From NCBI GenBank assembly GCA_021802545.1, contig JAJZRS010000006.1, forward strand, positions 9,308 to 73,307: 64,000 nucleotides of DNA. Direction: 5' to 3'. The notes under the pieces are model-generated. The model was not told the origin of the DNA, ran no database searches, and worked only from the letters and a program-made list of their open reading frames with translations. The stretch comes from Pseudomonadota bacterium (GTDB taxonomy: Bacteria; Pseudomonadota; Gammaproteobacteria; Burkholderiales; JABEVD01). The position numbers and the translations under genes are program-made. Numbering within the stretch: the first letter of the stretch is position 1; every line of letters begins with the position of its first letter. Shown piece after piece: positions 4,380 to 61,302 of the stretch.

Positions 4380-4415
4380 CCTTTTGGTGCTATGATCCCG
4401 CCGAAAGGAGGAGAA

Positions 4416-12542: not shown

Positions 12543-12586
12543 GGATGCATGAGCGGGTAAGTTGTGTTTAAGTCGGACGCTGCGCC

Positions 12587-14215: not shown

Positions 14216-14233
14216 GGTCCCTCCCCAGTGTTT

Positions 14234-16075: not shown

Positions 16076-16085
16076 TTTATTCCCC

Positions 16086-16889
16086 TCAGAAGCCCAGGCT
16101 TTCCAGAAGTTCGTCCACCTGCGCCTGGTTGGTCACGACATCGACTCTTCCATCCGCCTTGATCACAGGGCCGTTCATCAGTCCATCAGGAACATCTTCC
16201 TTTTTGGGCATGTTTTCGATCAACAATCCGATGAGCTGCGATTCTACAGACCTGACGATGTCCACCACCTTCTTGATGACCTGTCCTGTCAGATCCTGGA
16301 AATCCTGGGCCATCATGATTTCCGTCAGCTGGGCATTGGTGGCCTTCACCTGGCCGGGCACATCGCCGAGATAATCGCGGGTCTTCACAGCCAGCGACTT
16401 GAATTCCTCGACGGAAAGCTTGTTGTCGAACGCCTTCTGCCATTCTTCGGAAAGCGCACTGGCGCGATCGCCTATTTTTTCCTGGAGGGGCCTTGCGAGC
16501 TCGATGGAATTCAGCACGCGTTCGGCTGCCTGCTGGGTCAGATTGGCGATGTAGGCGAGCCTGTCGTTCGCATCCGGTACCGAATTGACGACCTTCTCGA
16601 TGGATTTGTCATAACCGAGTTCGCGTAGCGCATTGTAGAGCGTGCGCGTGAGCTGCCCGACCTGCGCGAAAACAGGCGCGGTGTCCTCGCCGCTTTTCTG
16701 CACGGCGGCCATTTCCTGGTGCTGCTGTGAGACGGAGTCGAACAGCGCTTCCAGATCAGCCGAATCCTGCTCTGCCGGCTTCTCTTCCTCAGGTGCGGGT
16801 TGGACTTGTGGAGTAGAAGCTTCCGCGTTTCCGGCCTGTACGATCGAATCGAACAGCGCTTCCAGGTCTTCGGAGTCTTCCATTGTCAA
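16086..16889 (-). CDS. cheZ: CheY-P phosphatase CheZ
   Basis: It has the catalytic block [16 protein letters not shown] and the C-terminal CheY-binding peptide [17 protein letters not shown] 4-nt overlap with the cheY stop is present. Confidence 0.92.
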
Positions 16890-43364: not shown

Positions 43365-43949
43365 GTGAGCGAACTTGATCATGAAGGCTACGAACAACTC
43401 GGTCATCTGGTGCGCCAGCTTCACGGCACGCTGAAGGAATTGGGCTGCGAGGAATCCATGCAGAAGATCGCGAGCGATCTTCCCGATACCCAGGACAGGC
43501 TCAATTATGTCGTCCAGATGACGGAACAGGCTGCGCAGCGCGTGCTTGAATCCGTCGAGAAGGCGATTCCCATCCAGACCGAACTCGAAGCCCAGGCTGC
43601 ATCCCTGTCCAACGAACTGAAAAACGCAAAAGATCCCGCCAGCCTCTCCGGAAAAGTGCAGGATTTTCTGGACAGCATTCCGAAATTCGCAAGCGAAACG
43701 TCATCTCATCTGACAGACATCCTGATGGCGCAGGATTTCCAGGATCTCACCGGCCAGGTGATCAAGAAGGTCACGCGGCTCGCTCAGGAAATGGAGCATC
43801 AGCTCGTCAACATCCTGCTCATCAGCAGGGGAGATTCTCGCAGCGAAGAAGGCCTGATGAACGGCCCCGTTGTGAAAAACGAAGGGCGAAGCGACATCGT
43901 CACGAACCAGCTCGAGGTCGACGACCTGTTGAGCAGCATGGGTTTCTGA
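43365..43949 (+). CDS. cheZ: Short CheZ paralog (orphan)
   Basis: The GTG start follows AAGGAGGGG. It shares [16 protein letters not shown] and the C-terminal VTNQLEVDDLLSSMGF with the che-operon CheZ. It lacks that protein's acidic N-terminal extension. Confidence 0.85.
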   Translation: MSELDHEGYEQLGHLVRQLHGTLKELGCEESMQKIASDLPDTQDRLNYVVQMTEQAAQRVLESVEKAIPIQTELEAQAASLSNELKNAKDPASLSGKVQDFLDSIPKFASETSSHLTDILMAQDFQDLTGQVIKKVTRLAQEMEHQLVNILLISRGDSRSEEGLMNGPVVKNEGRSDIVTNQLEVDDLLSSMGF

Positions 43950-46688: not shown

Positions 46689-47210
46689 ATGAACATGCAT
46701 GACGCATGGAAAAAAGAAGAATGGGTCATCTGGAACGGCTATTACGGCATCGTCACGGTGGGGACGCTGGGCAGGATAGAGGTGAATGAGGAGGGCAGAA
46801 GCGCATGGATGGATCTGCCCTACGACATGCTGGGGCCGTTCAAGCTGGACGAGCTCGAGTCGCACGGCAGGATCGAATTCGCCGCCTGCATCGTCATGTC
46901 GCGCAAAAGATGGCATGAAGACCAGGATGAGCTTCGCAGGGAATCCCTGGAAAAGCGCAGGGCTGCCCAGGCGCGCATGAACGATGAATTCTCGAACTTC
47001 TTCGGCGGGCATGGCGGCAAGCGCAAGTCATTCGACGAGAAGCAGCATCGGGAGGCACTGAATCTGCCGCTTGATGGGAAGCTCGATCCTTCCCAGATCA
47101 AGGCCGCTTTCAGGAGGCTCGCCCAGAAGGTCCATCCTGACATGGGAGGGACGGACGAAGCCTTCGTGCGCATCACGGAAGCGCGCAACGCGCTGCTCGA
47201 ATGGTCCTGA
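46689..47210 (+). CDS. J-domain (DnaJ-like) protein with C-terminal J domain
   Basis: The C-terminal LDPSQIKAAFRRLAQKVHPDMGG...F..I.EA...L carries the HPD motif. The start ATG 46689 follows GCGGGAG. The upstream part of the track ORF is rejected. Confidence 0.7.
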   Translation: MNMHDAWKKEEWVIWNGYYGIVTVGTLGRIEVNEEGRSAWMDLPYDMLGPFKLDELESHGRIEFAACIVMSRKRWHEDQDELRRESLEKRRAAQARMNDEFSNFFGGHGGKRKSFDEKQHREALNLPLDGKLDPSQIKAAFRRLAQKVHPDMGGTDEAFVRITEARNALLEWS

Positions 47211-47212
47211 AA

Positions 47213-47247
47213 ACCGGCAGCTCATAAGCCGATTCTGCCGGTTTTTT
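47213..47247 (+). terminator. Rho-independent terminator
   Basis: The hairpin ACCGGCAG..(14 nt)..CTGCCGGT followed by TTTTTT lies immediately after the J-domain gene stop. Confidence 0.7.
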
Positions 47248-47326: not shown

Positions 47327-47374
47327 GGACAAAAGCAAAAGCAACAAAACAACAATTAAGTAAGGGGTTTTGCC

Positions 47375-49390
47375 GTGCATGAGACGTACAACAATTGGCT
47401 CAATGCCGAGCTTTCGGCTGCGCCTTTCGAACGCCAATCGCAAGACCCGAATCAGCTGCGAAATTCCCTGCTCCGTTTTCCGGCCGGAAGTCGAATCCAG
47501 AACTTCGCCAACTTTGCGTCCGCCATCGTCAAATCGGCCGGCCTGGCGCTTGCGCTCGCCGGCTGCGCAGCGCAAACCCACAACTTCATCGGGAGCGCAG
47601 ATCAATCGCAGCATGGGCAACAGCCCTTCGCGAACATGGTGGGCAAGCTCGATCCGAATCCGCCAAAGGGTGCATCGGAATCGCAGGTAAAGGCTGCAGA
47701 GGCAGTGCGCTTCATAGAGCAAGCGAAGCTGGCGGAAGCGAGCAAAACGATCAATGCCGCCTTGCAGCTGGACGATCGCAATTCCTATCTGCATTTCCTC
47801 AACGGGTTCATTTACCAGCTGCAGGCCAGGCAGGGCGATGCGCAAAAGAACATGATGGCCATCGAGGGGTACCGCCTGGCGCTGCGGCTTGATCCGGGCA
47901 ACTGGATCGCGCAGGAGTTCCTGGGACTGGCTTACATGGACATGAAACAGTTCGCGCAGGCAAAGGAGCAGTTCACGCAAGTGCTGCTCATGTCCCCCGA
48001 CAGCAAGGTCGCCATGAACGGGTTGATGCTCGCCTCCTATCTGACGGGTGATGTGGGCACGGCCTGCGCCATGGCCGATCAGTTCAGGCGGCACGCAGCG
48101 GCGCTCCCGCCCGAGTTCATCCGGTCGAGCGTTTCCGTGTACGCCTCATGCGGCGAATTCGGGAAGGCTGACCGCATGCGGGACGAGTTGGGCAAGCTCT
48201 CCACCGATCCCGATCTCGTTGCGGGAGTGAACCGTCGCCTATCTCAATGGAAGGATTACTACGGCGGGCGTCTCGAGCAAGTTGCGGATGCGTTTTCGAT
48301 AGTGAGCCGGCCGGCGCAGGACAAGAGCGAACTGCCTGCCGCACCACCGATGCCTGCCCCGACCCAGCCTGCTGCGCCATCAGAGCAGCCCCCTTCGCCC
48401 GTCGACCGCGCGCCTCAACCGGAAGGCAATCATGGCATGGTCCTGGTCGATGTGGTGATGCTGTCCACGCTGGAAACGATCACCACGTCCACAGGCGTCA
48501 ACCTGCTCAACGCGTTGACGCTACAGCTCGGCTCCGCGACGGCACCCGCATTTTCCAAAACCTTCAGCGGCTCCTTCGACGGGACGACGAACACTTCCAA
48601 CACGCAAATCACCCGGGCGGTGACGATCCCGGCGCTCTCTTATTCCCTGAACATCGCCAATGCGGTAAACAACGTGAACGAGGTGCTGGCAAGGCCAACG
48701 CTTGCCGCGATAGAAGGGCAGCCCTCCGAGTTTTTCGCTGGCAGCAATCTCAGCGCTGGCGTGCTTTCGACCACCACCCTGGGCAGCCCTTCGGTTGTTC
48801 CGGTGGACAAGCGGTTTGGCGTGCAGCTCGCAATCACGCCATCCTTCGAACCGAATGGAATGATCAAGCTGAAGGTCAACGCAAAGCGCACTTTCCTGAA
48901 TGCAACGCCGAACACAGGCAATTTTGCCTACCAGTACGACATCGACGAGACCTCGACCGACGCGAACGTGGTGATGAGGATGGGCGATACGCTGGTCCTC
49001 AGCGGCCTGAGCGAGAAGGAGACCACAAGCTCACGCAACGGCGTGCCGGTGCTGCAGGATGTGCCCATCGTCCAGTATCTCTTTTCAACGAAGCGCGACA
49101 TCGACTATCAGCGCTCGGTGCTGATACTGATCACGCCGCGCGCGCCTGTCTACGCCGACAAGGCCGAGCCGAGCCCAACCGGCCGCACGAGCGAAAGCCT
49201 GAAAGCCCTGCGCAGGAGAATGGGCTTTTCCGGCGCAATGCCTTCCAACATCGATTCCATCGTGAACCACATGAAAACAACTGATTTCTACAGGCAGTTC
49301 CGGCAAACGGACGTCGTCATGGAAAAATGGGATCGCAGCCGCACGACTGCGGATCGGCTGCGCCAGGCGCTCGATTTTCTCTACTACTGA
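47375..49390 (+). CDS. TPR-repeat lipoprotein fused to a secretin (type II/III secretion system family) C-terminal domain
   Basis: It has a lipobox LALAGC (Cys codon 47564-47566) and TPR-like repeats (residues ~100-290). A Pro-rich linker leads to the secretin core (MVLVDVVMLS..., GVPVLQDVPIVQYLFS...SVLILITPR). GTG start 47375 has an RBS, but the signal peptide is unusually far from it. Confidence 0.75.
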   Translation: MHETYNNWLNAELSAAPFERQSQDPNQLRNSLLRFPAGSRIQNFANFASAIVKSAGLALALAGCAAQTHNFIGSADQSQHGQQPFANMVGKLDPNPPKGASESQVKAAEAVRFIEQAKLAEASKTINAALQLDDRNSYLHFLNGFIYQLQARQGDAQKNMMAIEGYRLALRLDPGNWIAQEFLGLAYMDMKQFAQAKEQFTQVLLMSPDSKVAMNGLMLASYLTGDVGTACAMADQFRRHAAALPPEFIRSSVSVYASCGEFGKADRMRDELGKLSTDPDLVAGVNRRLSQWKDYYGGRLEQVADAFSIVSRPAQDKSELPAAPPMPAPTQPAAPSEQPPSPVDRAPQPEGNHGMVLVDVVMLSTLETITTSTGVNLLNALTLQLGSATAPAFSKTFSGSFDGTTNTSNTQITRAVTIPALSYSLNIANAVNNVNEVLARPTLAAIEGQPSEFFAGSNLSAGVLSTTTLGSPSVVPVDKRFGVQLAITPSFEPNGMIKLKVNAKRTFLNATPNTGNFAYQYDIDETSTDANVVMRMGDTLVLSGLSEKETTSSRNGVPVLQDVPIVQYLFSTKRDIDYQRSVLILITPRAPVYADKAEPSPTGRTSESLKALRRRMGFSGAMPSNIDSIVNHMKTTDFYRQFRQTDVVMEKWDRSRTTADRLRQALDFLYY

Positions 49391-49434
49391 CAACTGACGC
49401 GCCAATCGCATACCGTTAAAAAAGAGGGGAATGA

Positions 49435-52134
49435 ATGAAGATCCGAACAGCATGCCTGGCCGCATTGTTCAATCTGGCCTTGCTCGCCACGCCGATGGCC
49501 CATGCGGACACATCGAGTTCCAAGGCGCCAATCAGCGACAACCTGAAGAAGATACTCTCCCTGATACCGGTACCCGGCATCAAGGGGGCGATGAACGGCC
49601 TGGTCGACGGGCTGAAGAAAGGTCAAAACGGCGGCTACGCCGCGAAAGCGACCGCGAACGGCGTGCCGCTGCAGCTTTATTTCTTCGGCAGCGGCGTGAG
49701 CCAGGCGGCCCTGCTGGTGGTGGACCACGAGATCGATGTGCCGCCCGTCTTCAACAACAAAGCATGGAAAAAACTGGCGGGCGCAAAGCTTTCAGGCACC
49801 ATCTTTTCCTTTTCAACGACAGACTTCGCACTGGATGTGAGCCAGATGCCGGCCGACTTCAGGCAAGTCGTCGCTCGCGACTACTTCAACGTGAGCTCGC
49901 TCAATTTCTCAAGCGGCGCCCAGGTCGCGGCCAGGATTGCGCTGGGCGGCGACATGAAGAAGGTCGTCGAGCAGGACCTGCATTTCACCGTGAAAGATTT
50001 CACGCTGCGCGCAGGCGTCGTTGTGCCGGTTCCGACCGATGCTGCCGGCAGCGCATCGCTCGTTGCATCGATGCTGGCTGACCTGAAGAATGTGGACAAG
50101 ACGCTGAAGGACCAGCCTGACTTTTTCGTCGAGTTCCAGCCGGCTCCGGGTACCCGCATCCAAGCTCCGCTCGGCATGAGCCAGCTGGTGCTCACGGACG
50201 CGACGATTTCGCTCACCGGCCATCTCGTGCTCGGCTTCCGGGGCAACATGTTCGTGCCGAGCGGAAAGAAATTCATCACCTTCTTCAATACGCCCCTGAC
50301 CCCGGCGGGGGTCATGGATTTCGGGGACTTCGAGTTCGGCATGGCTGCCCAGACCGCCACGCTGAGGGAGTTGGCCGAGTTGAGCCTGTGCCTGAACCCC
50401 GCGAGCCCCAAAGTGCCTGGCGGCAGCTTCATCAAGGGCATCGGCACATACAGGAACCAGCTCAATGCGCTGCTGAAGCCCCTGTCGGTGTTCGAGATCG
50501 AGAATCCCAACCAGGTCGGGGAATACGAGTTCGGCAACAAGAACAAGCCTTTCCCTCCCAAGAGCGCGTTCAACATACTCGTGCTCGGCCCGCTCGCCAG
50601 CTCGACAGATTCCAACGGCCAATCGCTCTCCGGACCGTATCTCCAGGCCCTCGGCAACGTGAGCGTGCTGAAGCAGAAGATGGGCAGCTTCAGGCTCACG
50701 GTGGGCCAGACCGGGCTGCACGGCTGGGTCGCGTCGGGACTCAATCTCAAGATGGGGCCGCTCGGCAGGCAGAACATCAGCATGCGGGCGAGCGCAGACA
50801 TCACCCAGGACAAGCAGCTGATGCTCGTGCATGGCGATCTGCTGGGCCGCAAGCTTGACGTGAGCATGGACGCCAACAGCCTCTCCATCGACAGCCCTGC
50901 GACCTGCGCCACGCCATTCGAGCTCGAAGAGCATCTCGACTTCCAGTCCGTGGCCACCCCGGATCTCTCGGCCCTGCTCGACAATCTACCCGGCGTGAAC
51001 GTCGACCCGTCGAAACTCGCCGGCTGCGTCGGAGCCGACCTGAAGAGCGCGTACCAGTGGGTGGCCGGCACCGGCAGCTCCCTCGGGGGATATACTGCGA
51101 ACCAGGCCAATCAGCAGCTGAAGAACATTGCCGATCAGGAAGCTGCAGCAGCGAAGGCCGCCCAGGATGCGTACAATGCCGCGAAGGATGCGGCCCGTCA
51201 GAAGGCGAACCAGGCAACGAACGATGCCATGAACGCCTTCAGGGATGCCGGCAACGCATTCAGGAAGCTGGGGGGCAAGAAGCACAAGCACCACAGCGGC
51301 CCCGATCCGAGATTCGCTGAGTCGGTTTTCAACTGGAGTTACTACTACGACCACAATCCCGATCTCGTCAAGGCTGGGGTCGACCTGGCGACGCATTGGC
51401 GGGACCATGGCTTCCAGGAGGGAAGGCAGGGCAGCCTCGAATTCAACGCCAGGTATTACCTCAGCCGTTATCCTGACGTGCAGCAGCAGTGCGGAAGCGA
51501 TTTGCTGTGCGCAACCAAGCATTGGCTATTCGGCGGCGGCATCGACCAGGGCCGTCAGGGCAGCCCCGATTTCAACGTCTATGACTACCTCAACCGGTAT
51601 CCTGACCTGCAGCAGGCATTCGGCCGGGACAATTATGCCGATGCGCTGGATCACTGGATCAATCATGGCCACGAAGAAGGACGCGACGGCAGCCCGGCTT
51701 CGTCCTACGCCGGCCCGGTTTCGGCGCCGGTGATCGCGGGAGGCGGCAGAGGCAACGACTGGAGCGATGCCGACGTGTGCGCGGGCTCGTTTGTGTCCGC
51801 AATCCACATGCGCTCGGCCCGCAACATCGATGGCATTGAATTCGGCTACGCCGGCCGCGGCTGGGCGCCCCCCCGCGGCTATACGGGGGGCAATCCCACA
51901 GCAGACGTGTATCTCGGGCCTGGCGAATATATCGTCAGGGTGGACTATGGCGGCCTCAATCCCATCGATTACCTGAAGTTCACGAGCAACCTCGGAAAAG
52001 TCTACGGGCCTTACGGATCGGGAAGTCCCGCGGGCAGTTACGAGGTGACGCCTGGGGAGAAGCTGGGCTGTGTGTCGGGGCGCGACGACAAGCACATCGA
52101 ACGACTCATCTTTTCTTCGACCGGGCCCCACTGA
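49435..52134 (+). CDS. Large secreted mosaic protein: unknown N-domain, Ala/Gln coiled segment, 3 short repeats, C-terminal jacalin-like lectin domain
   Basis: It has a Sec signal MKIRTACLAALFNLALLATPMAHA. A three-fold repeat Y..(R)YPD(L/V)QQ..G......H(W)...G..EGR.GS is present. The C-terminus GGG.GNDW....I..I......IDGIEFGY......G..GG......L.PGEYI..V......I..L.F.SN.G...GP.G resembles jacalin-type lectins. Confidence 0.7.
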   Translation: MKIRTACLAALFNLALLATPMAHADTSSSKAPISDNLKKILSLIPVPGIKGAMNGLVDGLKKGQNGGYAAKATANGVPLQLYFFGSGVSQAALLVVDHEIDVPPVFNNKAWKKLAGAKLSGTIFSFSTTDFALDVSQMPADFRQVVARDYFNVSSLNFSSGAQVAARIALGGDMKKVVEQDLHFTVKDFTLRAGVVVPVPTDAAGSASLVASMLADLKNVDKTLKDQPDFFVEFQPAPGTRIQAPLGMSQLVLTDATISLTGHLVLGFRGNMFVPSGKKFITFFNTPLTPAGVMDFGDFEFGMAAQTATLRELAELSLCLNPASPKVPGGSFIKGIGTYRNQLNALLKPLSVFEIENPNQVGEYEFGNKNKPFPPKSAFNILVLGPLASSTDSNGQSLSGPYLQALGNVSVLKQKMGSFRLTVGQTGLHGWVASGLNLKMGPLGRQNISMRASADITQDKQLMLVHGDLLGRKLDVSMDANSLSIDSPATCATPFELEEHLDFQSVATPDLSALLDNLPGVNVDPSKLAGCVGADLKSAYQWVAGTGSSLGGYTANQANQQLKNIADQEAAAAKAAQDAYNAAKDAARQKANQATNDAMNAFRDAGNAFRKLGGKKHKHHSGPDPRFAESVFNWSYYYDHNPDLVKAGVDLATHWRDHGFQEGRQGSLEFNARYYLSRYPDVQQQCGSDLLCATKHWLFGGGIDQGRQGSPDFNVYDYLNRYPDLQQAFGRDNYADALDHWINHGHEEGRDGSPASSYAGPVSAPVIAGGGRGNDWSDADVCAGSFVSAIHMRSARNIDGIEFGYAGRGWAPPRGYTGGNPTADVYLGPGEYIVRVDYGGLNPIDYLKFTSNLGKVYGPYGSGSPAGSYEVTPGEKLGCVSGRDDKHIERLIFSSTGPH

Positions 52135-52160
52135 CCAGAATGTGATTCCTGGAAAGCAGC

Positions 52161-52194
52161 AAGGGGTTGATCGGAAGATCAACCCCTTGTTTTA
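52161..52194 (+). terminator. Rho-independent terminator
   Basis: The hairpin AAGGGGTTGATC-GGAA-GATCAACCCCTT is followed by GTTTTAT. Confidence 0.7.
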
Positions 52195-52215
52195 TCTGGC
52201 TCCCCGACCTGGACT
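52195..52215 (-). repeat. tRNA-Asn 3'-end fragment A (att-like direct repeat)
   Basis: TCTGGCTCCCCGACCTGGACT is identical over 21 nt to 61344-61364 (tRNA 3' end plus 2 flanking nt). Confidence 0.8.
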
Positions 52216-52364
52216 GGTTGGCGATTAAACGGCCGGCATCCGAATCGTGCAACCGGCGCTTGCGCGCAACATCCCGTTCCAAGACGGCCGGAAGATTCGC
52301 TGCAATTTACAGCGCTGCAATCGCTGGGGTACGATGAATCCATTTGCAATTTGGAAAATTTCAC

Positions 52365-55262
52365 ATGACGACATCGGGTGAAAGGTTCTCGGACTCCCTA
52401 CCCGACATGGGTTCTCTCGTGCAAGGTTTGTTGGGCGAATCGGACAAGCTTTTGCTTGGATTGCTGAATAATGAGCTGATCGGCATCTATGTTATTCAGA
52501 ACAACCAGTTCCGCTATGTGAACTCGCGTTTCGCAGCGATGTTCGGGTACACGCAGGAAGAACTTTGCTGCGGAATGGGCCCGCTCGATTTAACCGTTCC
52601 GGAATACCGGCTGCTGGCCAGTCAAGAAATTGAGAGGCGTATCCAGAACGAAGCCAAGAGCAGCCACTATTCCTTCGAAAGCTTGCACAAGGATGGCAGC
52701 AGGCTTCATATAGAAGTGTTCGGCTGCCGCACCGAACTGGATGGGCGGCCGGCAATCATTGGCATGCTGATCGACAACACCGAACGTCGCAAGGCCGAAC
52801 TTGAAGTGAAGGAGCAGCTTCATTTCACCGCACAACTGATAGATGCCATCCCCAACCCCATCTTCTACAAGGATGAGCATGGCCGTTATCTGGGCTGCAA
52901 TAGTGCCTTCGAGCAGATGATCGGATGCCGGCGCGATGAAATATTGGGAAAAACAGTCTACGAACTTTCACCCAGGGAGCTTGCGGATGTCTATTATGCA
53001 GCCGACAAGTCATTGTTCGACAACCCGGGTATCCAGCGCTACGAAGCCACTGTCAGGTCCGGCGGCGGCGAACATAGGGACGTGTTGTTCAATAAAGCCA
53101 CCTTCAACAAATCCGACGATAGCCTGGGCGGTTTGGTGGGCATCATACTCGACATTACCGAACGCAAGCATATGGAAAATGCGTTGATGCAGCGCGAGCG
53201 GGAATATCGCACCCTGGTGGAAAACACGCACGATGTCGTGGTGCGATTCGACAGTGATTGCCGCCGCATCTACGTAAACAAAGCCTGGGAACGGGTCAAT
53301 GGCGTTCCTGCATCAGTGGTGCTCGGCAAATCCCCGAAAGAGGCTTCTGTCACCGTAAAATCGATTGCAGGGGATTATGAAAGGGTGGTGCGTGAGGTCA
53401 TTGCAAGCGGGCAGCCCGGCAAGCTGGATTTGACGTGGCGCAGCGAGGAAGGCGAGTTGTTTTGCTTTGCGATGACTGCAATTCCGGAATTCGACAGCAG
53501 CGGCAAGCCAATCACGGTATTGACAGTGGGGCGCGACATCACCAATCGCAAGCGGATGGAGGAAGAATTGGCTGCCCGCGAACAGGAGTGGCGTACCCTG
53601 GTTGAAAACTCCCCTGACACCATTGCCCGTTACGACCGCGATTGCCGGCGCATTTACGTCAATCCTGCATTTTGTGCGTTGACCGAAGGCGGCGCTGATG
53701 CGCTGCTGAACAAGAAGCCTTCAGAGTATCCCGGTGGGGCAATTTCTGTCAGTTACGAGGCCAACATCCGGGAAGTATTTGCGACCGGGAAGGATGCGGA
53801 GTTCGAATTGAACTGGAAAGACAAGACGGGCAACGAACTATGCAGCATCATTCGCCTGACGCCGGAAAAGGATCTGTCAGGCAAGGTGGTGACGGTCATG
53901 GGAGTGGGGCACGACATCTCCGAGCTGAACATGCAGCGCAAGGCAATCCATCAGATGGCGTTCTACGACATGTTGACCCAGCTTCCCAATCGGCGGCTTT
54001 TTCTGGACAGGCTGCAGCACGCATTGAATTCCAGCGCCCGCACCGGTCAGCACGGTTCGCTGCTGTTCCTGGATCTGGATAATTTCAAGACGCTCAACGA
54101 TTCGCTCGGCCATGATATCGGAGACATGTTGCTGCAACAGGTTGCGCAGAAGCTGACAACCTGCGTGCGCGAGTGCGACACCGTGGCGCGCATCGGCGGC
54201 GACGAGTTCGTCATCATCATGGAGAGCCTCAGCAAGGATCCCTTCGAAGCAGCTGCACAAACCGAAACGGTCGCAGAGAAGATACTGTTGTCCTTGAATT
54301 CCCCTTATCGCCTCGACAAGCATGAAGTCAGCACATCCTCCAGCATCGGAATCACCCTGTTCAGCAGTCACGAGCAGAAAATAGAGGAGCTGTGCAAACA
54401 GGCTGATATCGCCATGTACCAGGCCAAAAACACGGGCCGCAACAGCCACCGGTTTTTTGATCCGAAAATGCAGGATGCCGTCAACGCCCGCGTTGCATTA
54501 GGGAGCGAATTACGCAAGGCGATCGAAAATGGCGAGTTTCAGCTTCACTATCAAATTCAGGTTGATCGATCGGGCAGCCCCACGGGAGCCGAGGCGCTGA
54601 TCCGCTGGATTCATCCCGAGCGCGGCGTCGTATCCCCTGCGCAATTTATCCACCTTGCCGAAGAAACCGGCCTGATGCTGCCCATCGGGCAATGGGTTCT
54701 GGAGACGGCATGCGCGCAATTGCGGAAATGGCAGGAGAATGCGCTTACAAGAAACATTGTTCTGGCGGTGAACGTCAGCGCAAAACAGTTCCATCAGCCC
54801 AATTTCGTCGATCAGGTTCGGGAAGCGGTGCGGCGCCATGCCGTCAAGCCGGATCTGCTCAAACTGGAGCTGACAGAAAGCTTCTTTCTGGAGAACATCC
54901 AGGACGCGATCGCCACCATGAATACATTGAAGGAGATCCGCATCCAGTTCTCCCTGGACGACTTCGGCACCGGCTATTCTTCGCTGCAATACCTCAAGCG
55001 GCTGCCGCTTGACCAACTCAAGATCGACCAGTCGTTTGTACGCGACATTGCGGTCGACAGCAGCGACAAGGCGATCGTGAGCACCGTCATCGCGATGGCG
55101 CAAAGCATGAATCTCGATGTCATCGCCGAAGGGGTGGAAACTGAAAACCAGCTGCAATTTCTCCAGGAAAAGGGATGCAACCAATATCAGGGATACTTCT
55201 TCGGAAAACCAGTGCCGATCGAACAGTTCGAAGCATCATTAATACAGGCTTCCCGATCTTGA
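52365..55262 (+). CDS. Multi-PAS - GGDEF - EAL signalling protein
   Basis: It has four PAS-like blocks, GGDEF intact (ARIGGDEFVI) and EAL intact ([36 protein letters not shown]). ATG 52365 is preferred over the TTG at 52344. Confidence 0.9.
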   Translation: MTTSGERFSDSLPDMGSLVQGLLGESDKLLLGLLNNELIGIYVIQNNQFRYVNSRFAAMFGYTQEELCCGMGPLDLTVPEYRLLASQEIERRIQNEAKSSHYSFESLHKDGSRLHIEVFGCRTELDGRPAIIGMLIDNTERRKAELEVKEQLHFTAQLIDAIPNPIFYKDEHGRYLGCNSAFEQMIGCRRDEILGKTVYELSPRELADVYYAADKSLFDNPGIQRYEATVRSGGGEHRDVLFNKATFNKSDDSLGGLVGIILDITERKHMENALMQREREYRTLVENTHDVVVRFDSDCRRIYVNKAWERVNGVPASVVLGKSPKEASVTVKSIAGDYERVVREVIASGQPGKLDLTWRSEEGELFCFAMTAIPEFDSSGKPITVLTVGRDITNRKRMEEELAAREQEWRTLVENSPDTIARYDRDCRRIYVNPAFCALTEGGADALLNKKPSEYPGGAISVSYEANIREVFATGKDAEFELNWKDKTGNELCSIIRLTPEKDLSGKVVTVMGVGHDISELNMQRKAIHQMAFYDMLTQLPNRRLFLDRLQHALNSSARTGQHGSLLFLDLDNFKTLNDSLGHDIGDMLLQQVAQKLTTCVRECDTVARIGGDEFVIIMESLSKDPFEAAAQTETVAEKILLSLNSPYRLDKHEVSTSSSIGITLFSSHEQKIEELCKQADIAMYQAKNTGRNSHRFFDPKMQDAVNARVALGSELRKAIENGEFQLHYQIQVDRSGSPTGAEALIRWIHPERGVVSPAQFIHLAEETGLMLPIGQWVLETACAQLRKWQENALTRNIVLAVNVSAKQFHQPNFVDQVREAVRRHAVKPDLLKLELTESFFLENIQDAIATMNTLKEIRIQFSLDDFGTGYSSLQYLKRLPLDQLKIDQSFVRDIAVDSSDKAIVSTVIAMAQSMNLDVIAEGVETENQLQFLQEKGCNQYQGYFFGKPVPIEQFEASLIQASRS

Positions 55263-55292: not shown

Positions 55293-55724
55293 TATCAGTC
55301 GATCCAGTATTTATGCGGGTTTGAGGCCAACCGTGGCTCCGTGAAATCTAAATGCCCCTTTGTTTTTCAACCCTTTGTTGACTGTGCGGAGCGGCTGAAA
55401 TGTGTCCAATTCCGCTGTTCGCTTCGCCATGGGTTAACCGGCAGCTATCAGAATCGAGCCGACACACAATATGCCAACTCATTGGCAATGCCTCGGTCAA
55501 AGCATCCGGTCGCGGATTATTGCCAACCTTTTCAAGCCAGGCAATTGATAGGGGATATCGCACTAGCTCAAAAGTGGCTCTACCCGTACCTAGGCAAAAG
55601 AATGGTGATGACACCATCAAATAGCATTCCTACAGTTTCACAATTTGATGATCTCCTGTAGAGTCTGAAAGACGTTATTTCAACAAGCTCGAAACTGCCC
55701 ATCAAATTGGAGCGTTTGCCGCTA

Positions 55725-58616
55725 ATGAAATTCAAACCACATATGTGGGTCATTGTCTTAATCCTCCTCTCCACTTGTACGCAGGCAGCCGTCCTGCGCG
55801 TCGTAACCGATGACAATTATCCCCCATACCTTTATCGCAACCCTGAAGGCAAAATCCAGGGTTACGAAGTCGACATATGGAAGTTGTGGGAGCAGAAAAC
55901 CGGCATCAAAGTAGATCTCATGGCGACGCAATGGGCGGATGCGCAACGCAGGCTGCTGGATGGAAAAGCTGATGTCATTGACATGATATTTCGTACACCT
56001 GAACGAGAAATTCTCTATGACTTTTCAAAACCTTATGTGAAGCAATCGGTGGCTATATATGTGGATGCGTCGATTTCGGGAATACATAATATTGACGACC
56101 TGAAAGGTTTTCAGATCGGCGTCGAAGCGGGCGATGCATGCGTCGAAAAACTACATGATTCGGGGGTGCTCGATCTGCGCCTTTACGATAATTATTCCGA
56201 CATGATTGAGAGTGCATCGCGGCAACAGATCAAGATGTTTTGCCTGGACGAAAAACCAGCTAATTACTACCTTTACAAACTCAACCTCTATGAAAAATTC
56301 AACAAGGCATTCGTGCTCTATCAGGCCTCCTTTCACCAGGCCGTGAAAAAAGGAAATTCTGCGGAATTGCGGCTTGTCGAGCAGGGAATGCAAGAAATCA
56401 CTTCCCAGGAAAAGGATGCGTTGAAAAAGAAATGGTATGGCGAAGCCTATCCTCAATTCAAGCATTCAAAAATTCTCGCCGAACTTTTGACCGGCTTGAT
56501 TTTGCTGCTCGCGGCGTCGATGGTATGGCTAAAATCGCTGCGCAGCGCTGTACGATCAAGGACGTCAGAATTGGAGCAGGAACGCGCTCAGCTTCGCACG
56601 CTGGTCGAAAGCAGTCCGGACTTGATCTGGTTGAAAAACGAGGAAGGGGTCTATCTGACATGCAATCAAAAGGCAGCGCTGATGCTCGGCAAGACTCCTC
56701 AGGAAGTCATCGGCAAGACAGATGCTGATTTGATGGATCAGAATATTGCAGACCAACTCAGGAAAGACGATCTGCGAGCGATTCAATCCGGCCAGCTGGT
56801 TTCGGTTGAAGAATGGATGCCTGCCACAGATGGAACCCCCCGCTTGCTTGAGACAGTCAAGTTGCCAATCAGGGGATCAGCGGGAAATTTCATAGGCGTG
56901 CTTGGGGTAGCGCGCGACATCACGGAGCGCCGATCAAACGAGCGTGCATTGGCAAATCAAGCCAGTATGCTCAAGGAAATGAGCGGTTTGGCTCACATCG
57001 GAGCTTGGGAATTCGATCCGGTCACGGGAGACGGGACTTGGACAGAAGAGGTGGCGCTGATCCACGAGGTTGACACGACGGCCTCTACCAACATGTCCTT
57101 TGGTATGAGCTTCTATATTGGGGAGAGCCGGAAAGCCATTGAACAGGCAGTCGATGCCGCAATAACGAGCGGGGCCCCCTACGACCTGGAGCTTGAAATG
57201 GTCACAGCCAAGGGAAATCGCAAGTGGGTTCGTACCATCTGCCATCCTTTGATTGAAGAAGGGAAGGTGATACGGATTCGCGGGACGATTCAGGACATTA
57301 CTGAGCGAAAGCGTGTCGAGGCGCAAGTCGAACACTTGGCATTCCATGATCAGCTGACGAGGCTTCCCAATCGCAGATTGTTCCGCGACCGTCTCGAGCA
57401 GGACATGAAGCGCGTGATTAGAGACAAATCCTCTCTTGCGCTGCTGTTCATTGACCTGGACCGATTCAAGGAAGTGAACGATACGCTGGGGCATGACAAG
57501 GGCGACATTCTCCTTGTCGAGGCAGCAAGGCGGATCAGGCAACATGTGCGGGATTCGGACACCATCGCTCGACTCGGGGGGGATGAATTTGCCATCATTC
57601 TGCCTGACTATGGAGAGACATCGAACATCGATCGAGTTGTGAGGGAAGTGCTGCAAGCCCTCGAAATGCCGTTCGACTTGGGGGACAGGAATGTCGGCCA
57701 CATTTCCGGCAGCATCGGTATCGCCCTCTATCCCCACGAGGCCGAGAGCATCGATGATCTGTTGAGGCACGCTGATCAGGCAATGTATGCAGCAAAAAGT
57801 TCTGGAGCAAACCGTTTCAGCTATTTCACGCGGAAAATGCAGGATGAAGCTCGCAATAAGGTGTGTCTGACCAACGAACTTCGCCATGCACTGGAACTGA
57901 ATCAGCTCGAAGTGTATTTCCAGCCTATCGTGGATACCCGAAGCAGCGAAATCGTCAAGGCAGAGGCATTGCTGCGTTGGCATCATCCTGAACGTGGAGA
58001 CATCAGCCCTGTCATTTTTATTCCACTGGCAGAGGAGTCGGGGCTGATTCTGGAGATTGGCGATTGGGTGTTCAAGGAAGCCTTGAGAAACATCGCAACA
58101 TGGCAGAAAAATACCGGGAAACTGCTTCAGGTCAGCGTGAACAAGTCATCTGCACAATTCATGCGGGAAGATAAGCCACGCTGGCGGGAAAGTTACCTCA
58201 GATCGGGGCTGCCCGAGCACGTCGTCACGGTTGAAATTACCGAAAGCTTGTTGTTGTCCGATTCTGAAAGGGTAAGAAGTTCATTTGATTTTTTTAAGGA
58301 ACATGGCATCGAGCTGTCAATCGATGATTTCGGAACTGGTTTTTCAGCCCTTTCATACCTGCACCGCTTCGATGTCGATTACCTGAAAGTAGACAAGTCT
58401 TTCGTGCAGAAGATGACGACAGACGCCTCCAGCAGGGCATTGACCGAGGCAATCATCATCATGGCGCACAAGCTCAACATCAAGACGATCGCCGAAGGCG
58501 TTGAAACAGAAGAGCAGCGCGATCTGCTTAAAGCATTCGGCTGCGACTACCTGCAAGGTTTCCTTTTTTCCAAACCCGTTCCTGCGAGCGAATTCGAAAA
58601 AATGATTTGTGGATGA
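55725..58616 (+). CDS. Periplasmic SBP(family 3)-TM-PAS-PAS-GGDEF-EAL signalling protein
   Basis: The N-terminal solute-binding domain reads LRVVTDDNYPPYLYRNPEGKIQGYEVDIW. A TM helix and two PAS domains follow. GGDEF is intact (ARLGGDEFAI) and EAL is intact (AEALLRWHHP, EITE, DDFGTGFS, KVDKSF, EGVE, QG). ATG 55725 is preferred over the TTG at 55707. Confidence 0.9.
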   Translation: MKFKPHMWVIVLILLSTCTQAAVLRVVTDDNYPPYLYRNPEGKIQGYEVDIWKLWEQKTGIKVDLMATQWADAQRRLLDGKADVIDMIFRTPEREILYDFSKPYVKQSVAIYVDASISGIHNIDDLKGFQIGVEAGDACVEKLHDSGVLDLRLYDNYSDMIESASRQQIKMFCLDEKPANYYLYKLNLYEKFNKAFVLYQASFHQAVKKGNSAELRLVEQGMQEITSQEKDALKKKWYGEAYPQFKHSKILAELLTGLILLLAASMVWLKSLRSAVRSRTSELEQERAQLRTLVESSPDLIWLKNEEGVYLTCNQKAALMLGKTPQEVIGKTDADLMDQNIADQLRKDDLRAIQSGQLVSVEEWMPATDGTPRLLETVKLPIRGSAGNFIGVLGVARDITERRSNERALANQASMLKEMSGLAHIGAWEFDPVTGDGTWTEEVALIHEVDTTASTNMSFGMSFYIGESRKAIEQAVDAAITSGAPYDLELEMVTAKGNRKWVRTICHPLIEEGKVIRIRGTIQDITERKRVEAQVEHLAFHDQLTRLPNRRLFRDRLEQDMKRVIRDKSSLALLFIDLDRFKEVNDTLGHDKGDILLVEAARRIRQHVRDSDTIARLGGDEFAIILPDYGETSNIDRVVREVLQALEMPFDLGDRNVGHISGSIGIALYPHEAESIDDLLRHADQAMYAAKSSGANRFSYFTRKMQDEARNKVCLTNELRHALELNQLEVYFQPIVDTRSSEIVKAEALLRWHHPERGDISPVIFIPLAEESGLILEIGDWVFKEALRNIATWQKNTGKLLQVSVNKSSAQFMREDKPRWRESYLRSGLPEHVVTVEITESLLLSDSERVRSSFDFFKEHGIELSIDDFGTGFSALSYLHRFDVDYLKVDKSFVQKMTTDASSRALTEAIIIMAHKLNIKTIAEGVETEEQRDLLKAFGCDYLQGFLFSKPVPASEFEKMICG

Positions 58617-58716
58617 ACCAATGAAAACATCTGTTTTCTGATCTCAACTGTCAATTGCAATGTAGTTGGGGATCCTCTAACTGCTTTTCACGAGTTGCGG
58701 ATCGGGGTGAAACGAA

Positions 58717-58751
58717 AAAGGCGTGCAAATCATGCAAGCCTTTGTTTTATT
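58717..58751 (+). terminator. Rho-independent terminator (one mismatch in stem)
   Basis: The hairpin AAAGGCGTGCA-AATCA-TGCAAGCCTTT is followed by GTTTTATT. Confidence 0.55.
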
Positions 58752-58780
58752 TGGCTCCCCGACCTGGACTCGTGACCTGC
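58752..58780 (-). repeat. tRNA-Asn 3'-end fragment C (att-like direct repeat)
   Basis: TGGCTCCCCGACCTGGACTCG (21 nt) is identical to 61346-61366. GACCTGC follows, matching the tRNA after a 7-nt deletion. Confidence 0.8.
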
Positions 58781-58798
58781 CCCCAAAAGGGATACCTG

Positions 58799-58837
58799 AT
58801 GCAAGCCTTTGTTTTATTCGGCTCACCAACTTGAATG
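58799..58837 (-). repeat. Degenerate duplicate of terminator tail + tRNA fragment (67-bp offset from fragment C)
   Basis: ATGCAAGCCTTTGTTTTATT (58799-58818) is identical to 58732-58751. The following 19 nt match fragment C at 12 positions. Confidence 0.65.
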
Positions 58838-58892
58838 AATCAGTGTAACTGGATTTATACCATCGCAATTTGAATATGGTGTGCCTTGAGTT

Positions 58893-59204
58893 TTATTTGT
58901 CAGCAGCATACGTTGAATTTATTTTGGCATTAAATTCTTCTAGTGCCATTGATATAGGTTTTTCATTCTCAGCCAAACCCTTCAACGTGTTTTGACAAAA
59001 TTCGATTAGCGTAGATGTCGGGACAGTTACCTGAAAATTGATTTTACGTAGTTCCTTGCCAGACTTTTCATCTAGCCCAACGGTTGTTTGGATCTGTATC
59101 TTTGATACAGGAATACCAATCATAGCTGATAGCCCATCAGCATAAACTTGAGCAGCAGATGCCATAGACTCAGGTATTACAGAAACGATAGGGGGAGTGC
59201 TCAT
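58893..59204 (-). CDS. Hypothetical protein (103 aa), third gene of the AT-rich operon
   Basis: This intact ORF has a start that overlaps the upstream stop by 4 nt (ATGA). I recognise no family. The composition is strongly AT-rich compared with the rest of the window. Confidence 0.55.
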   Translation of the reverse strand: MSTPPIVSVIPESMASAAQVYADGLSAMIGIPVSKIQIQTTVGLDEKSGKELRKINFQVTVPTSTLIEFCQNTLKGLAENEKPISMALEEFNAKINSTYAADK

Positions 59205-59797
59205 CTCTTTATCCTTGTTGAGTTGTTATCTAGATAGTGTCTTTCATGTGTTGCTACACTCAATTCTGTCATGCTTCCACTTTCTGCAGAGGCTATCGGC
59301 AGTAACTCAATGTTTGTTCTAATGGAGAATGGTGACATAACAGAAATATAGAAAGGTTTATGGTTTCCATTAGTAATATCTTGCGCTACTTCATATGCTG
59401 ATTGCACATGCAATATCGGGAATGTGGTTGTTACTGTTTGAGTCGCATGAGGCGCATCCTTCCAATATGATGTACGTTCCTCAGTTATCTTTCGCGCTGA
59501 AATCACAGGCTCCATACCCATGCCGAGCAAAAGGTCGCTCACGGTATCTATAGTCCAATTGCCGGGTGATCCTAGCCAACGAGTGATTTGTTCAGGTTTT
59601 CGTTTAATTTTTCTAGCAAGTTTTGCACGACTCGTTTTGCCTGCGCGCTCTTGAGCTGCAAATTCCCTTAGCACAAGTTCGTGGAGTTTATTGCTAAAAC
59701 GTCCACGAAAATATGCCAACATTACAGTTGGAATCTCTTTGCCACTTTCTTCAGGCTCAGACGAGGTAGGTATTTGATATACAGGCTGGGTAGTCAT
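59201..59797 (-). CDS. HTH (XRE-like) protein with ~110-aa C-terminal domain of unknown function
   Basis: The segment TSRAKLARKIKRKPEQITRWLGSPGNWTIDTVSDLLLGMGME looks like an XRE-type helix-turn-helix. AGGAG precedes the ATG-ATG pair at 59800/59797. It overlaps the upstream gene by ~41 nt. Confidence 0.55.
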   Translation of the reverse strand: MTTQPVYQIPTSSEPEESGKEIPTVMLAYFRGRFSNKLHELVLREFAAQERAGKTSRAKLARKIKRKPEQITRWLGSPGNWTIDTVSDLLLGMGMEPVISARKITEERTSYWKDAPHATQTVTTTFPILHVQSAYEVAQDITNGNHKPFYISVMSPFSIRTNIELLPIASAESGSMTELSVATHERHYLDNNSTRIKR

Positions 59798-60299
59798 CAT
59801 CGTCTCCTGATGATTTAGGTTCGTAGGTTGGGAGTAGTTTTTTCCACTCCGTTTTGCAGCCGACAATTGCATCCCTCCATGCTCTATCTGTAGGGCCTCC
59901 CAGGTCAGTTCTGTGCCACCAATTCAAAGCGATAAACACATCTCTATCAGCAAATCTTCCCAGTACTCGGATACTAGGCTTCGGGTCTCTGCTTCTAATT
60001 TCCCATACTTCCTCGCGAAATCGAAACAACTGCCTCATGTATGCGTTCTTGCCCCCAAGTAGAGGATGTTCTGCTATTGGAATTATCCCGCCTTGCATAA
60101 ACCGATCGAAATCGGCGCGCAGATAACCACATCGCTCTTCCCATTCTTCGTTATGCCATGGCCCAACAAGAAGAGAATAGATTTCCTCATTAACGTACAT
60201 CTGTCGAGGACTTGCTCCTTCGTCTGGCGCCATTATCGGTTGCAACAAATGAAGTCGCCCCTCTTGTACTCTATTTGTAATTTCAGCTGAAATTGACAT
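59757..60299 (-). CDS. Hypothetical protein (180 aa), possible RelE/Gp49-like toxin core with N-terminal extension
   Basis: The segment EVWEIRSRDPKPSIRVLGRFADRDVFIALNWWHR resembles the '..W E(L/I)R....yR(V/I)ly.f....vv.L..f.K' core of RelE/HigB/Gp49 toxins, but the similarity is weak. ATG 60299 is preferred over the TTG at 60308. Confidence 0.5.
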   Translation of the reverse strand: MSISAEITNRVQEGRLHLLQPIMAPDEGASPRQMYVNEEIYSLLVGPWHNEEWEERCGYLRADFDRFMQGGIIPIAEHPLLGGKNAYMRQLFRFREEVWEIRSRDPKPSIRVLGRFADRDVFIALNWWHRTDLGGPTDRAWRDAIVGCKTEWKKLLPTYEPKSSGDDDDYPACISNTYLV

Positions 60300-60521
60300 A
60301 TAAGTCAATATGTATGTTCGACATATGAATCAATATATTCGTTCTCGAATAGAATCAGTATCTCCCGTCTAAGTAACACGGGGGGCTACAAATACATTCC
60401 CAGCAAATCTATCCTCTTTCCCCTGTTCTGACAATGATCTAGACACATTCCATTTACGCAGCCGAGCACCGCACAGTAAGACAAAGGGGAAGTGAACGCT
60501 GGAGCGTAGGCGCCGAGAAAT

Positions 60522-60917
60522 CTAGCGGGGAGTTTCCTGCATGAACAACGAGCGCATGGAGCGAACGAATTCCTGCGCCTCCAGCACTGATCTGGCAGCA
60601 TCTTCGGGTTCAACGGAGTCACCTTTGTAATCGGCGATGAGACGAAGTTCCTCCGCCCGATTAAGCGCTTTTCCAAGTTCTATCGGCACGCGCTTCGTCT
60701 TGACGAGATTCAGGCTGAATGCGGTGATCAGGCCGTTGTGCGTTCTGGCGATTTCGGGTTGAACATTGGAACGCGATGTCAGCAAGGCTGCCCGGGCAGC
60801 GTCGAACATGGCGTAGTATGCCCGGTTGCAGGCGCCGTCGACATCCCCAGCTTCCAGCAGCAGTTTTGCGGACACAACTGCCTGGTCCGCTTTTGCCATC
60901 AAATCAGCGGCGTTCAC
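60522..60917 (-). CDS. HEPN domain protein (toxin of a HEPN/MNT pair)
   Basis: It is a helical protein with ..A...L.......D.A.NRAYYAMF.AA.A.L and ...THNGL..F. The GTG start overlaps the MNT gene stop (GTGA). Confidence 0.75.
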   Translation of the reverse strand: MNAADLMAKADQAVVSAKLLLEAGDVDGACNRAYYAMFDAARAALLTSRSNVQPEIARTHNGLITAFSLNLVKTKRVPIELGKALNRAEELRLIADYKGDSVEPEDAARSVLEAQEFVRSMRSLFMQETPR

Positions 60918-61261
60918 AGCCGAATGCCGTCACGGTCTATGTTTGCGAGCAGGCGGGGATTGGAATATGCATCCGGATGTACCCATTCCTGTTCCCAGAT
61001 CGGAAGGGGCTGGATGCGGATACCGGTTTCCAGAAGCACTTCATAGGCCAGGTCGCCCATGTCAAGCTTGGTCGACACGAAATTGCCGGGCTGCCCACGC
61101 AGGAGGACGGCCACGTCCGCATCGCTGTCTGGGCGGTGGGCTTTTCTTGCCCGGCTGCCGAAGAGGATGGCACCGGCGAAATCATAGCGATCCGAGACCA
61201 TTGCGATGAAGGAGCGGGTCGCGTTGATGGTTTCTGCGTCGATGTCAGCGAGAGAGCCCAT
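60914..61261 (-). CDS. Nucleotidyltransferase (MNT) domain protein (antitoxin of a HEPN/MNT pair)
   Basis: It has the LFGSRARKAHRPDSDADVAVLL GS-x10-DxD pol-beta signature. ATG 61261 is preferred over the TTG at 61297. Confidence 0.75.
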   Translation of the reverse strand: MGSLADIDAETINATRSFIAMVSDRYDFAGAILFGSRARKAHRPDSDADVAVLLRGQPGNFVSTKLDMGDLAYEVLLETGIRIQPLPIWEQEWVHPDAYSNPRLLANIDRDGIRL

Positions 61262-61268
61262 GCGTATA

Positions 61269-61297
61269 AGAATAGTAAGAGACTTTAGGAGTGTCAA
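61269..61297 (-). promoter_or_regulatory. Candidate promoter giving a (near-)leaderless MNT/HEPN transcript
   Basis: The minus strand has TTGACA (61297-61292), a 17-nt spacer and TATTCT (61274-61269). The ATG at 61261 lies only 7 nt downstream of the -10 element and has no SD sequence. Confidence 0.35.
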
Positions 61298-61302
61298 TGA
61301 AT

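Follow-up and report, generated by a model that had tools for sequence, protein, structure and literature searches.

Secretins are the outer-membrane gates of large ATP-driven machines, namely the type II and type III secretion systems (T2SS, T3SS), type IV pili (T4P), Tad pili, competence systems and filamentous-phage export, and they form SDS-resistant outer-membrane channels of 12-16 subunits. Can a secretin also serve as a gate when its only partner is a secreted protein? The question is raised by two adjacent genes found in 64,000 nucleotides (nt) of contig JAJZRS010000006.1 (assembly GCA_021802545.1, a Pseudomonadota bacterium of the order Burkholderiales), a stretch that was analysed whole and is called the window below. 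Gene 1 encodes a fusion of a tetratricopeptide repeat (TPR) domain with a secretin core, and gene 2 encodes a large secreted protein that ends in a lectin domain. We tentatively propose that the two genes form a dedicated secretin-cargo module for outer-membrane export or surface display, a reading that we favour while placing it slightly below an even chance. What is known here is the secretin; what is new is its architecture and genomic setting, which are not described in the literature searched.

Architecture and classification of the TPR-secretin

All the elements that a preliminary description of the sequence had named in gene 1 (lipobox, TPR block, Pro-rich linker, secretin core and the quoted motifs) are present in the translation (Table 1). 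The core matched PF00263 over amino acids (aa) 432-589 with an E value of 7.6e-29 (100.9 bits against a cut-off of 27.5). The alignments of the MshL, GspD and pIV models begin at aa ~356-370, pointing to one N3-like segment before the core. Pfam TPR matches cover aa 117-240, within 11 helices that AlphaFold modelled at aa 102-297 with a predicted local distance difference test score (pLDDT) of ~90. The N0, N1, N2, AMIN and CpaC-N domains are the parts of secretins that contact GspC, PilP or RcpC-type partners. No N0/STN, Secretin_N, AMIN or CpaC-N (PF13629) domain was detected in gene 1 by Pfam, even at E <= 1. None of the domains by which secretins normally connect with a machine in the inner membrane (N0/N1/N2, AMIN, CpaC-N) is thus present in gene 1; in their place it has a periplasmic TPR domain on a Pro-rich tether and a tail ending in FLYY.

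When family-specific NCBIfam models were run on gene 1, all scores fell 4-10 fold under the cut-off. PilQ (TIGR02515) gave 70.5 bits against 284, GspD (TIGR02517) 66.9 against 351.35 with only model positions 369-588 aligned, MshL (TIGR02519) 54.4 against 250, HofQ (NF010083) 44.2 against 554, SctC 35 against 238 and PilN 22 against 288. The features expected of single families told the same story. For GspD, N0-N2 are absent, and gspC-M genes are neither found in the window nor conserved across the 80 loci sampled; for PilQ, HofQ and MshL, there is no AMIN and no N0; for RcpA and CpaC, there is no PF13629 and no tad gene within the window. By sequence, RcpA of the Tad pilus is the nearest secretin of solved structure (8odn; E 6e-14, 54.7 bits, partial alignment), followed by T2SS secretins, and the top structures found by Foldseek for the core are PulD, ExeD and RcpA, with EpsD also retrieved. 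Classified by profile, the protein is a secretin, yet it stands outside the curated GspD, PilQ, MshL, HofQ, SctC and PilN families; on this evidence it appears to belong to the secretin superfamily and to none of its described functional families.

The protein search returned more than 620 relatives of gene 1, the best 120 of which all combine TPR and secretin, and a scan of one genome per species found relatives in 147 species-level genomes. Their carriers are mostly Burkholderiales, Gallionellales and Rhodocyclales, with some Gammaproteobacteria (Idiomarina/Pseudidiomarina, Cellvibrionaceae, Steroidobacter). Gene 1 itself was hidden from the homology search by a database artefact, as the 90% cluster that holds it is represented by a 30-aa fragment. 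The homologs are labelled "secretion protein", "CpaC", "TadD", "PilF" or "TPR protein" at source (CpaC, TadD and PilF by JGI annotators). A literature search on orphan or stand-alone secretins, self-piloting, secretins with jacalin and TadD fusions returned no account of a TPR-secretin fusion or of a secretin-lectin pair, and the eLife "secretin-like complex" paper deals with a GspD-like candidate from Flavobacterium. Public annotations are generic, and the preliminary description likewise knew of no described system with this composition.

The view of gene 1 as a pilotin-like, self-piloting lipoprotein fared less well. The lipobox (L61-A62-G63-C64, nt 47555-47566) is limited to a subclade of about 16 of 120 homologs, and the rest carry ordinary signal peptidase I signal peptides. 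The PilW model (TIGR02521) scored 38.7 bits against a cut-off of 154. Searched against the PDB, the TPR-domain profile retrieved only generic or consensus TPRs (designed CTPRs, OGT/SPINDLY, APC subunits, PEX5), and TadD, PilF, PilW, BamD, AlgK, BcsC and PelB were absent from the top 60 matches. Hence that reading is weak.

The other end of the protein is more telling. The last four residues follow F[LI][YF][YF] in 120 of 120 homologs, unlike the C-termini of the partner proteins, which vary among variants. The last four residues of RcpA sit in the TPR groove of TadD and are essential for assembly, and TadD consists of 11 helices forming five TPRs (PMC10499894). The invariant aromatic tail, together with the RcpA-TadD precedent, makes the tail a candidate ligand of the fused TPR domain, and it is plausible by analogy that this domain binds the secretin C-terminus and is needed for assembly.

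A more distant alphaproteobacterial relative, a lipoprotein TPR-secretin of 549 aa annotated only as 'tetratricopeptide repeat protein', was noticed on plasmid NZ_CP084912.1 of Asticcacaulis sp. AND118 (L092, 38344-45239). Its gene belongs to a block of five genes on one strand, of which another encodes a TPR protein and three encode hypothetical proteins, with no ATPase and no pilin among them.

The secreted partner and the conservation of the pair

Gene 2 encodes an 899-aa protein with a Sec signal and a jacalin-like C-terminus, as described before (translation; PF01419). The AlphaFold model has a mean pLDDT of 84.7, with values below 50 at aa 17-28. The body of ~530 aa contains an invariant Cys491/Cys531 pair and gave no match in Pfam, among PDB sequences, among PDB folds or among viral folds (BFVD); it constitutes a closed family of ~80 clusters, to which an exhaustive HMMER search added a fringe of distant relatives. 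The helical repeats that follow belong to a family with 10,522 matches at E <= 1e-3 among 1.84 billion representatives, with up to 12 copies per protein and no Pfam model. They also occur in Azospirillum proteins annotated as calcium-binding or M10-C-terminal, which we take to be RTX-type extracellular proteins.

The jacalin domain (PF01419, aa 769-891) was detected with an E value of 1.3e-12 (48.7 bits against a cut-off of 22), and Foldseek superposed it on griffithsin, ZG16 and banana lectin at template modelling (TM) scores of ~0.8. One loop of this domain (52059-52088, aa ~876-885) corresponds to what is presumably the canonical sugar-binding motif, GxxxD. In the window protein and in P0122, an ortholog at 88%, the loop reads DKHIE, against GSSID in other family members, so that the sugar specificity of the DKHIE proteins may be altered or lost. 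Both C-terminal modules, the helical repeats and the jacalin domain, are of kinds known from extracellular proteins. The jacalin domain is found in about half of the gene 2 family and is absent from the rest, with ricin-B lectins instead in P0360, and gene 2 homologs occur as tandem paralogs. The tandem paralogs, the optional or swapped lectin and the repeats shared with RTX proteins give gene 2 the look of a cargo or effector, not of a machine part.

A link to the PEP-CTERM/exosortase system (PrsT) was also considered and rejected, TIGR02917 giving gene 1 only 29.6 bits against a cut-off of 312; nor is gene 2 a PEP-CTERM cargo, as it ends in ...FSSTGPH with no PEP motif and no C-terminal transmembrane helix.

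Conservation of the pair was assessed by tblastn of the gene 2 body against the 80 sampled gene 1 loci. The body lies directly beside the secretin in 45 of them, or 45 of the 62 loci in the clade at least 49% identical to gene 1, standing upstream of the secretin in 32 loci and downstream in 13. All gene 2 copies (52 of 52) are on the secretin strand; a single copy is present in 39 loci, two copies in five and three copies in one (Herminiimonas aquatilis). The other 17 loci of the clade are mostly contigs cut beside the secretin, or have a different secreted partner there, from a family of ~340 aa. The pair occurs in both Beta- and Gammaproteobacteria, the latter including Idiomarina and Pseudidiomarina. 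Among five distant gene 2 relatives examined, three adjoin or lie within 3 kb of a divergent TPR-secretin (L087, L088, L089/L090), at identities of 25-33% for gene 2 and 29-39% for gene 1, and in a fourth (L091) the contig ends too soon for linkage to be judged. The pair is therefore conserved across genomes, and the objection foreseen in the preliminary description, that it might not be, falls away.

No further gene family accompanies the pair. Neighbour open reading frame clustering of the gene-2-type loci detected no other co-conserved family, and no ATPase, polytopic platform protein or pilin. The same holds for the window, where Pfam annotation over the full length bore out the reported absence of T2SS, T4P, Tad, T3SS and phage-assembly genes, and where neither the precomputed nor the new Pfam annotation contains an ATPase, platform or pseudopilin gene.

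Other members of the secretin family have other partners, and every partner protein seen carries a signal peptide. Tectonin-lectin proteins are one such group. Another partner family, of ~340 aa and without a Pfam match, combines a signal peptide with a helical N-terminal half and a Gly-rich β C-terminal half, and its end, ...YTLLIGKF, resembles an outer-membrane β-signal. It was seen at L003:10799-11818, L006:7247-8218, L019:8865-9887, L002:14131-15528 and L053:13124-14710, with jacalin in L002 and L053.

The branch at or below 48% identity to gene 1 shows a fixed trio, consisting of an NMT1_3/TAXI-like periplasmic binding protein, the TPR-secretin and a secreted pentapeptide-repeat protein. 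The latter follows the TPR-secretin in 13 loci (L056, L057, L059-L062, L065, L066, L068-L070, L072 and L081; e.g. L060:8805-12599), and the trio is often preceded by an SDF-family symporter and by small secreted proteins whose N-terminus bears a C-x(4-6)-C-K motif. The linkage to a binding protein and a symporter might indicate uptake rather than export for some members of this clade. In one metagenome-assembled genome (L004:2548-6675), the TPR-secretin adjoins a Tad/Cpa-like cluster that contains another secretin of its own (tblastn, 4396-4890); among the 80 loci, pilus-type genes are adjacent here alone.

A proposed two-gene module and the competing explanations

The preliminary description had suggested a minimal two-gene export module. 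The conserved, co-oriented pair and the lack of co-conserved machinery support this part of it; the self-piloting lipoprotein part is not supported in the form given. In the mechanism that we propose for the secretin-cargo module, Sec would carry both proteins into the periplasm, and the gene 1 secretin would multimerise in the outer membrane. Its own TPR domain would take the role of a separate TPR pilotin, probably by holding the aromatic C-terminus of its own or an adjacent protomer in the way that TadD holds that of RcpA, and in the subclade of the window the N-terminal lipid anchor would assist assembly. The TPR domain or the vestibule would recognise the gene 2 protein in the periplasm, and this protein would traverse the secretin gate or lodge in it, with the repeats and the lectin outside the cell. 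Because there is no ATPase or pseudopilus, directionality would have to come from another source, for example the binding of external glycan or matrix. The cargo would likely be a glycan-binding adhesin, a matrix protein or a toxin.

A wider claim, which we hold to be possible but doubtful, is a secretin-only pathway, in which a TPR-bearing secretin would export or display Sec-exported folded lectin proteins with no ATPase, pseudopilus or platform, and in which the cargo genes (the gene 2, 340-aa and Tectonin families) would be interchangeable. If such a module were truly autonomous, it would amount to a new secretion route. A secretin gate would then be workable without a piston or needle, which bears on the question of how these gates open. 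The pair would also provide a compact export cassette of two genes that could be used for surface display and a natural single-chain model of the pilotin-secretin interaction, and it would give a context to the genes of ~150 species now annotated only as "secretion protein", "TPR protein" or "lectin", as well as to a 530-aa domain without a known fold.

Several observations weigh against the secretin-cargo module. We know of no secretin that functions without an inner-membrane partner and an ATPase, and no energy source is evident for the module. The PDB profile search with the TPR domain brought up no pilotin among its top 60 matches, and no specific similarity links the domain to these proteins. 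In the AlphaFold monomer of gene 1 the core is of low confidence and the tail has a pLDDT below 50, and the model lends no support to docking of the tail in the groove. The sugar-binding loop of the window jacalin domain departs from GxxxD. As for linkage, four secretin loci with full flanks (L024, L034, L044, L047) have no large partner, the 13.8-kb contig of P0360, a distant relative of gene 2, contains no secretin, and the clade at or below 48% identity (18 sampled loci) never has gene 2, its binding-protein and pentapeptide-repeat context being unlike that of a cargo.

The competing explanation that survives best, although we consider it unlikely, takes gene 1 as an orphan or alternative gate, one more outlet for a T2SS, T4P or Tad machine whose genes lie elsewhere. 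Gene 2 would then be a substrate of that machine, situated beside the gate that it prefers. All characterised secretins operate with inner-membrane machinery, and the host Proteobacteria commonly carry T2SS and T4P. Gene 1 is indeed weakly similar to PilQ, GspD, MshL and RcpA, but every family-specific model remains far under its cut-off, and the N0, N1, N2, AMIN and CpaC-N domains by which such a gate would dock are missing. The Tad-like cluster beside the gene 1 relative in L004 might be taken for the machine in question; however, it has a second secretin of its own. Moreover, no machinery family is co-conserved in the 80 loci, and the pair is tightly co-inherited across classes.

It is also conceivable, though quite unlikely in our judgement, that gene 2 serves the secretin structurally, as a periplasmic ring, cap or anchor whose lectin or repeats bind peptidoglycan, lipopolysaccharide or polysaccharide, and that the true substrate is something different. 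Secretins often have tightly linked accessories such as TsaP, PilP and pilotins, and the body of gene 2 is both well conserved and inherited together with the secretin. A structural subunit is nevertheless expected to be single-copy and invariant, whereas gene 2 varies in copy number from 1 to 3, its C-terminal modules are optional or swapped, and unrelated partner families (340-aa, Tectonin) replace it beside otherwise close secretin homologs. The nearest precedent for an accessory is the pentapeptide-repeat protein that forms a ring on cyanobacterial PilQ (PMC12475490), and a pentapeptide-repeat protein does follow the TPR-secretins of the distant clade in 13 loci.

An exopolysaccharide (EPS) nozzle appears very unlikely. 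According to this explanation the TPR-secretin would export a polymer and gene 2 would be a matrix lectin that binds it, an arrangement in which the N-terminal periplasmic TPR domain and the C-terminal outer-membrane channel mirror EPS exporters. Two PAS-GGDEF-EAL genes directly downstream, GGDEF neighbours in 8 loci, and GumK-like and GT2 genes within 10 kb in L001 would fit with it; on the other hand, the secretin has no co-conserved family of glycosyltransferases, polymerases or copolymerases, such genes are also absent from the surroundings of the pair in the window, and the TPR profile did not retrieve AlgK, BcsC or PelB. Secretins have been reported to be necessary for slime secretion (PMC12475490), which also speaks for this alternative.

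Finally, a filamentous-phage or prophage remnant with gene 1 as a pIV-type virion export secretin is effectively refuted and was rejected, since the match to PHROG 1012 (pIV of M13, E 6.9e-15) reflects only the common secretin core, no relative occurs among 2.9 million viral contigs, no phage genes lie in the window or are conserved in the loci, and the GC content of the pair is not under the window average.

The locus, its surroundings and comparison with known systems

Both open reading frames lie, co-oriented, where the preliminary description had placed them (open reading frame listing), and the 44-nt gap, the separate Shine-Dalgarno (SD) sequence of gene 2 and the terminator after it were all recovered (Table 1).

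Table 1. Features of the two-gene locus, in window coordinates
Feature	Position	Strand	Evidence or remark
Upstream hairpin and T-run	47210..47247	+	Ends DnaJ-like gene; by eye (aaaaccggcag ... ctgccggtttttt)
Gene 1 SD (AAGGGG) and GTG start	47362..47377	+	SD 8 nt upstream of GTG
Gene 1, TPR-secretin fusion, 671 aa	47375..49390	+	
Signal peptide h-region and lipobox L-A-G-C (Cys64)	47510..47566	+	Sequence
TPR domain, 11 helices, aa 102-297	47678..48265	+	Pfam TPR_2, TPR_1, TPR_8; AlphaFold
Pro/Ala-rich flexible linker, aa 299-355	48269..48439	+	Variable length, gapped in alignment; pLDDT <50
N3-like segment and secretin core, aa 356-589	48440..49141	+	PF00263; MshL, GspD, pIV models
Conserved C-terminal tail domain, aa 590-671, ending F-L-Y-Y	49142..49387	+	Alignment
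Intergenic spacer, 44 nt	49391..49434	+	Gene 2 SD AAGAGGGG at 49422-49429
Gene 2, secreted multidomain protein, 899 aa	49435..52134	+	
Sec signal peptide, aa 1-24, predicted cleavage after AHA, before D	49435..49506	+	Sequence (MKIR..., h-region)
β-rich body, fold unmatched, aa 25-552	49507..51090	+	AlphaFold pLDDT 80-95
Ala-rich long helical hairpin, aa 555-608	51097..51258	+	AlphaFold; then basic linker (KKHKHH)
Three ~45-aa helical repeats, aa ~626-747	51310..51675	+	YYxxxNPDLxxAGxDxxxHWxxxGxxEGRxGS
Jacalin-like β-prism lectin domain, aa 766-895	51730..52119	+	PF01419, Foldseek
Intrinsic terminator of two-gene unit	52158..52197	+	15-bp GC-rich hairpin and UUUUAU

The gene 2 SD, AAGAGGGG, ends 5 nt before its start, and a terminator scan of the 44-nt gap found none between the two genes. 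Downstream of gene 2, the fold at 52158-52197 has a free energy of -28.2 kcal/mol (z -4.69), none of 200 shuffles being as stable; this hairpin was detected by folding against shuffles, and the simple consensus terminator scanner gave no flag. The scanner did not flag the hairpin upstream of gene 1 either, whose loop of 14 nt exceeds its limit; judging from its position and form, this hairpin may shield gene 1 from transcription upstream. The expression signals are consistent with a single operon for genes 1 and 2.

An identical 671-aa product of gene 1 is called in the source assemblies, and the locus was also found in several metagenome assemblies and one NCBI metagenome-assembled genome. 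The N-terminus of gene 1 has an unusually long extension of ~45 aa before the signal peptide (aa 1-45, 47375-47509), which occurs in no homolog, and no canonical in-frame start lies nearer the lipobox. The true start is uncertain on both counts, the alternative being an extended signal peptide.

Outside the pair, Pfam annotation of the window shows chemotaxis genes, cyclic diguanylate (c-di-GMP) enzymes, Mfd, RadA, housekeeping enzymes and a HEPN/nucleotidyltransferase pair. Directly downstream of gene 2 are two multi-PAS GGDEF-EAL proteins of ~970 aa (52344-55262 and 55707-58616), the second with an N-terminal SBP_bac_3 domain. GGDEF-type neighbours were seen in 8 related loci, and a c-di-GMP or biofilm link is possible. 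FimV-family proteins promote assembly of the PilQ secretin in Pseudomonas, and a FimV_N-domain protein of 386 aa (11382-12542) adjoins a cluster of methyl-accepting chemotaxis protein, CheA and CheZ genes (region 11382-16889). It is the sole loosely related item in the window and, lying 35 kb from the pair, is probably unrelated. A second CheZ-like gene is located at 43365-43949. The region ~58000-61300 has a GC content of 0.45 against a window mean of ~0.57 and contains open reading frames without a Pfam match, and it may be a small acquired islet. The HEPN/nucleotidyltransferase pair, which is toxin-antitoxin-like, is at ~60520-61260, as placed by offset from L082.

Among known systems, RcpA-TadD (8odn, PMC10499894) is the nearest to gene 1. 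Besides the sequence match to RcpA, TadD and the gene 1 TPR domain both have 11 helices, and as the RcpA tail binds the TadD groove, so gene 1 joins an invariant aromatic C-terminus with a TPR domain. In gene 1, however, a single polypeptide holds both parts, the TPR domain being N-terminal to the secretin, and most members of its family are not lipoproteins. Gene 1 has no VirB9-like or CpaC N-domain, no tad/cpa genes nearby and no specific TadD similarity, and docking of its tail is a deduction only.

With the T2SS secretins GspD/PulD/XcpQ and their pilotins (GspS, AspS), gene 1 shares the core fold, and its C-terminal extension stands at the position of the S-domain. Unlike them it has no N0-N2 and no gspC-M genes, and its lipid anchor is not conserved. 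HxcQ, by comparison, is a liposecretin that pilots itself. T2SS takes as substrates folded proteins that Sec has exported, among them lectin-bearing toxins and matrix proteins.

Two further likenesses are matters of analogy only. The TPR-porin EPS exporters (PgaA, BcsC, PelB; AlgK-AlgE) also have a periplasmic TPR domain fused or bound to a C-terminal channel, and c-di-GMP neighbours; they differ from gene 1 in being monomeric β-barrels of 16-18 strands with polysaccharide cargo and synthase operons. Two-partner secretion (TpsB/TpsA, type Vb) resembles the mechanism proposed for the pair, as it too is encoded by a transporter and a cargo gene, recognises a Sec-exported cargo in the periplasm, uses no ATP at the outer membrane and often exports a large adhesin or toxin. 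TpsB, in contrast, is an Omp85 barrel with POTRA domains that handles unfolded cargo and has no homology to secretins.

On the side of the putative cargo, the C-terminal PF01419 domain of gene 2 places it with the jacalin-related lectins griffithsin, ZG16 and banana lectin, from which the window protein differs by DKHIE at the position of the GxxxD loop. Secreted bacterial toxins and matrix proteins with β-prism and β-trefoil lectin modules are known, such as the Vibrio cholerae cytolysin and Bap1/RbmC. The gene 2 body has no detectable similarity to these proteins, and in P0360 it carries ricin-B modules.

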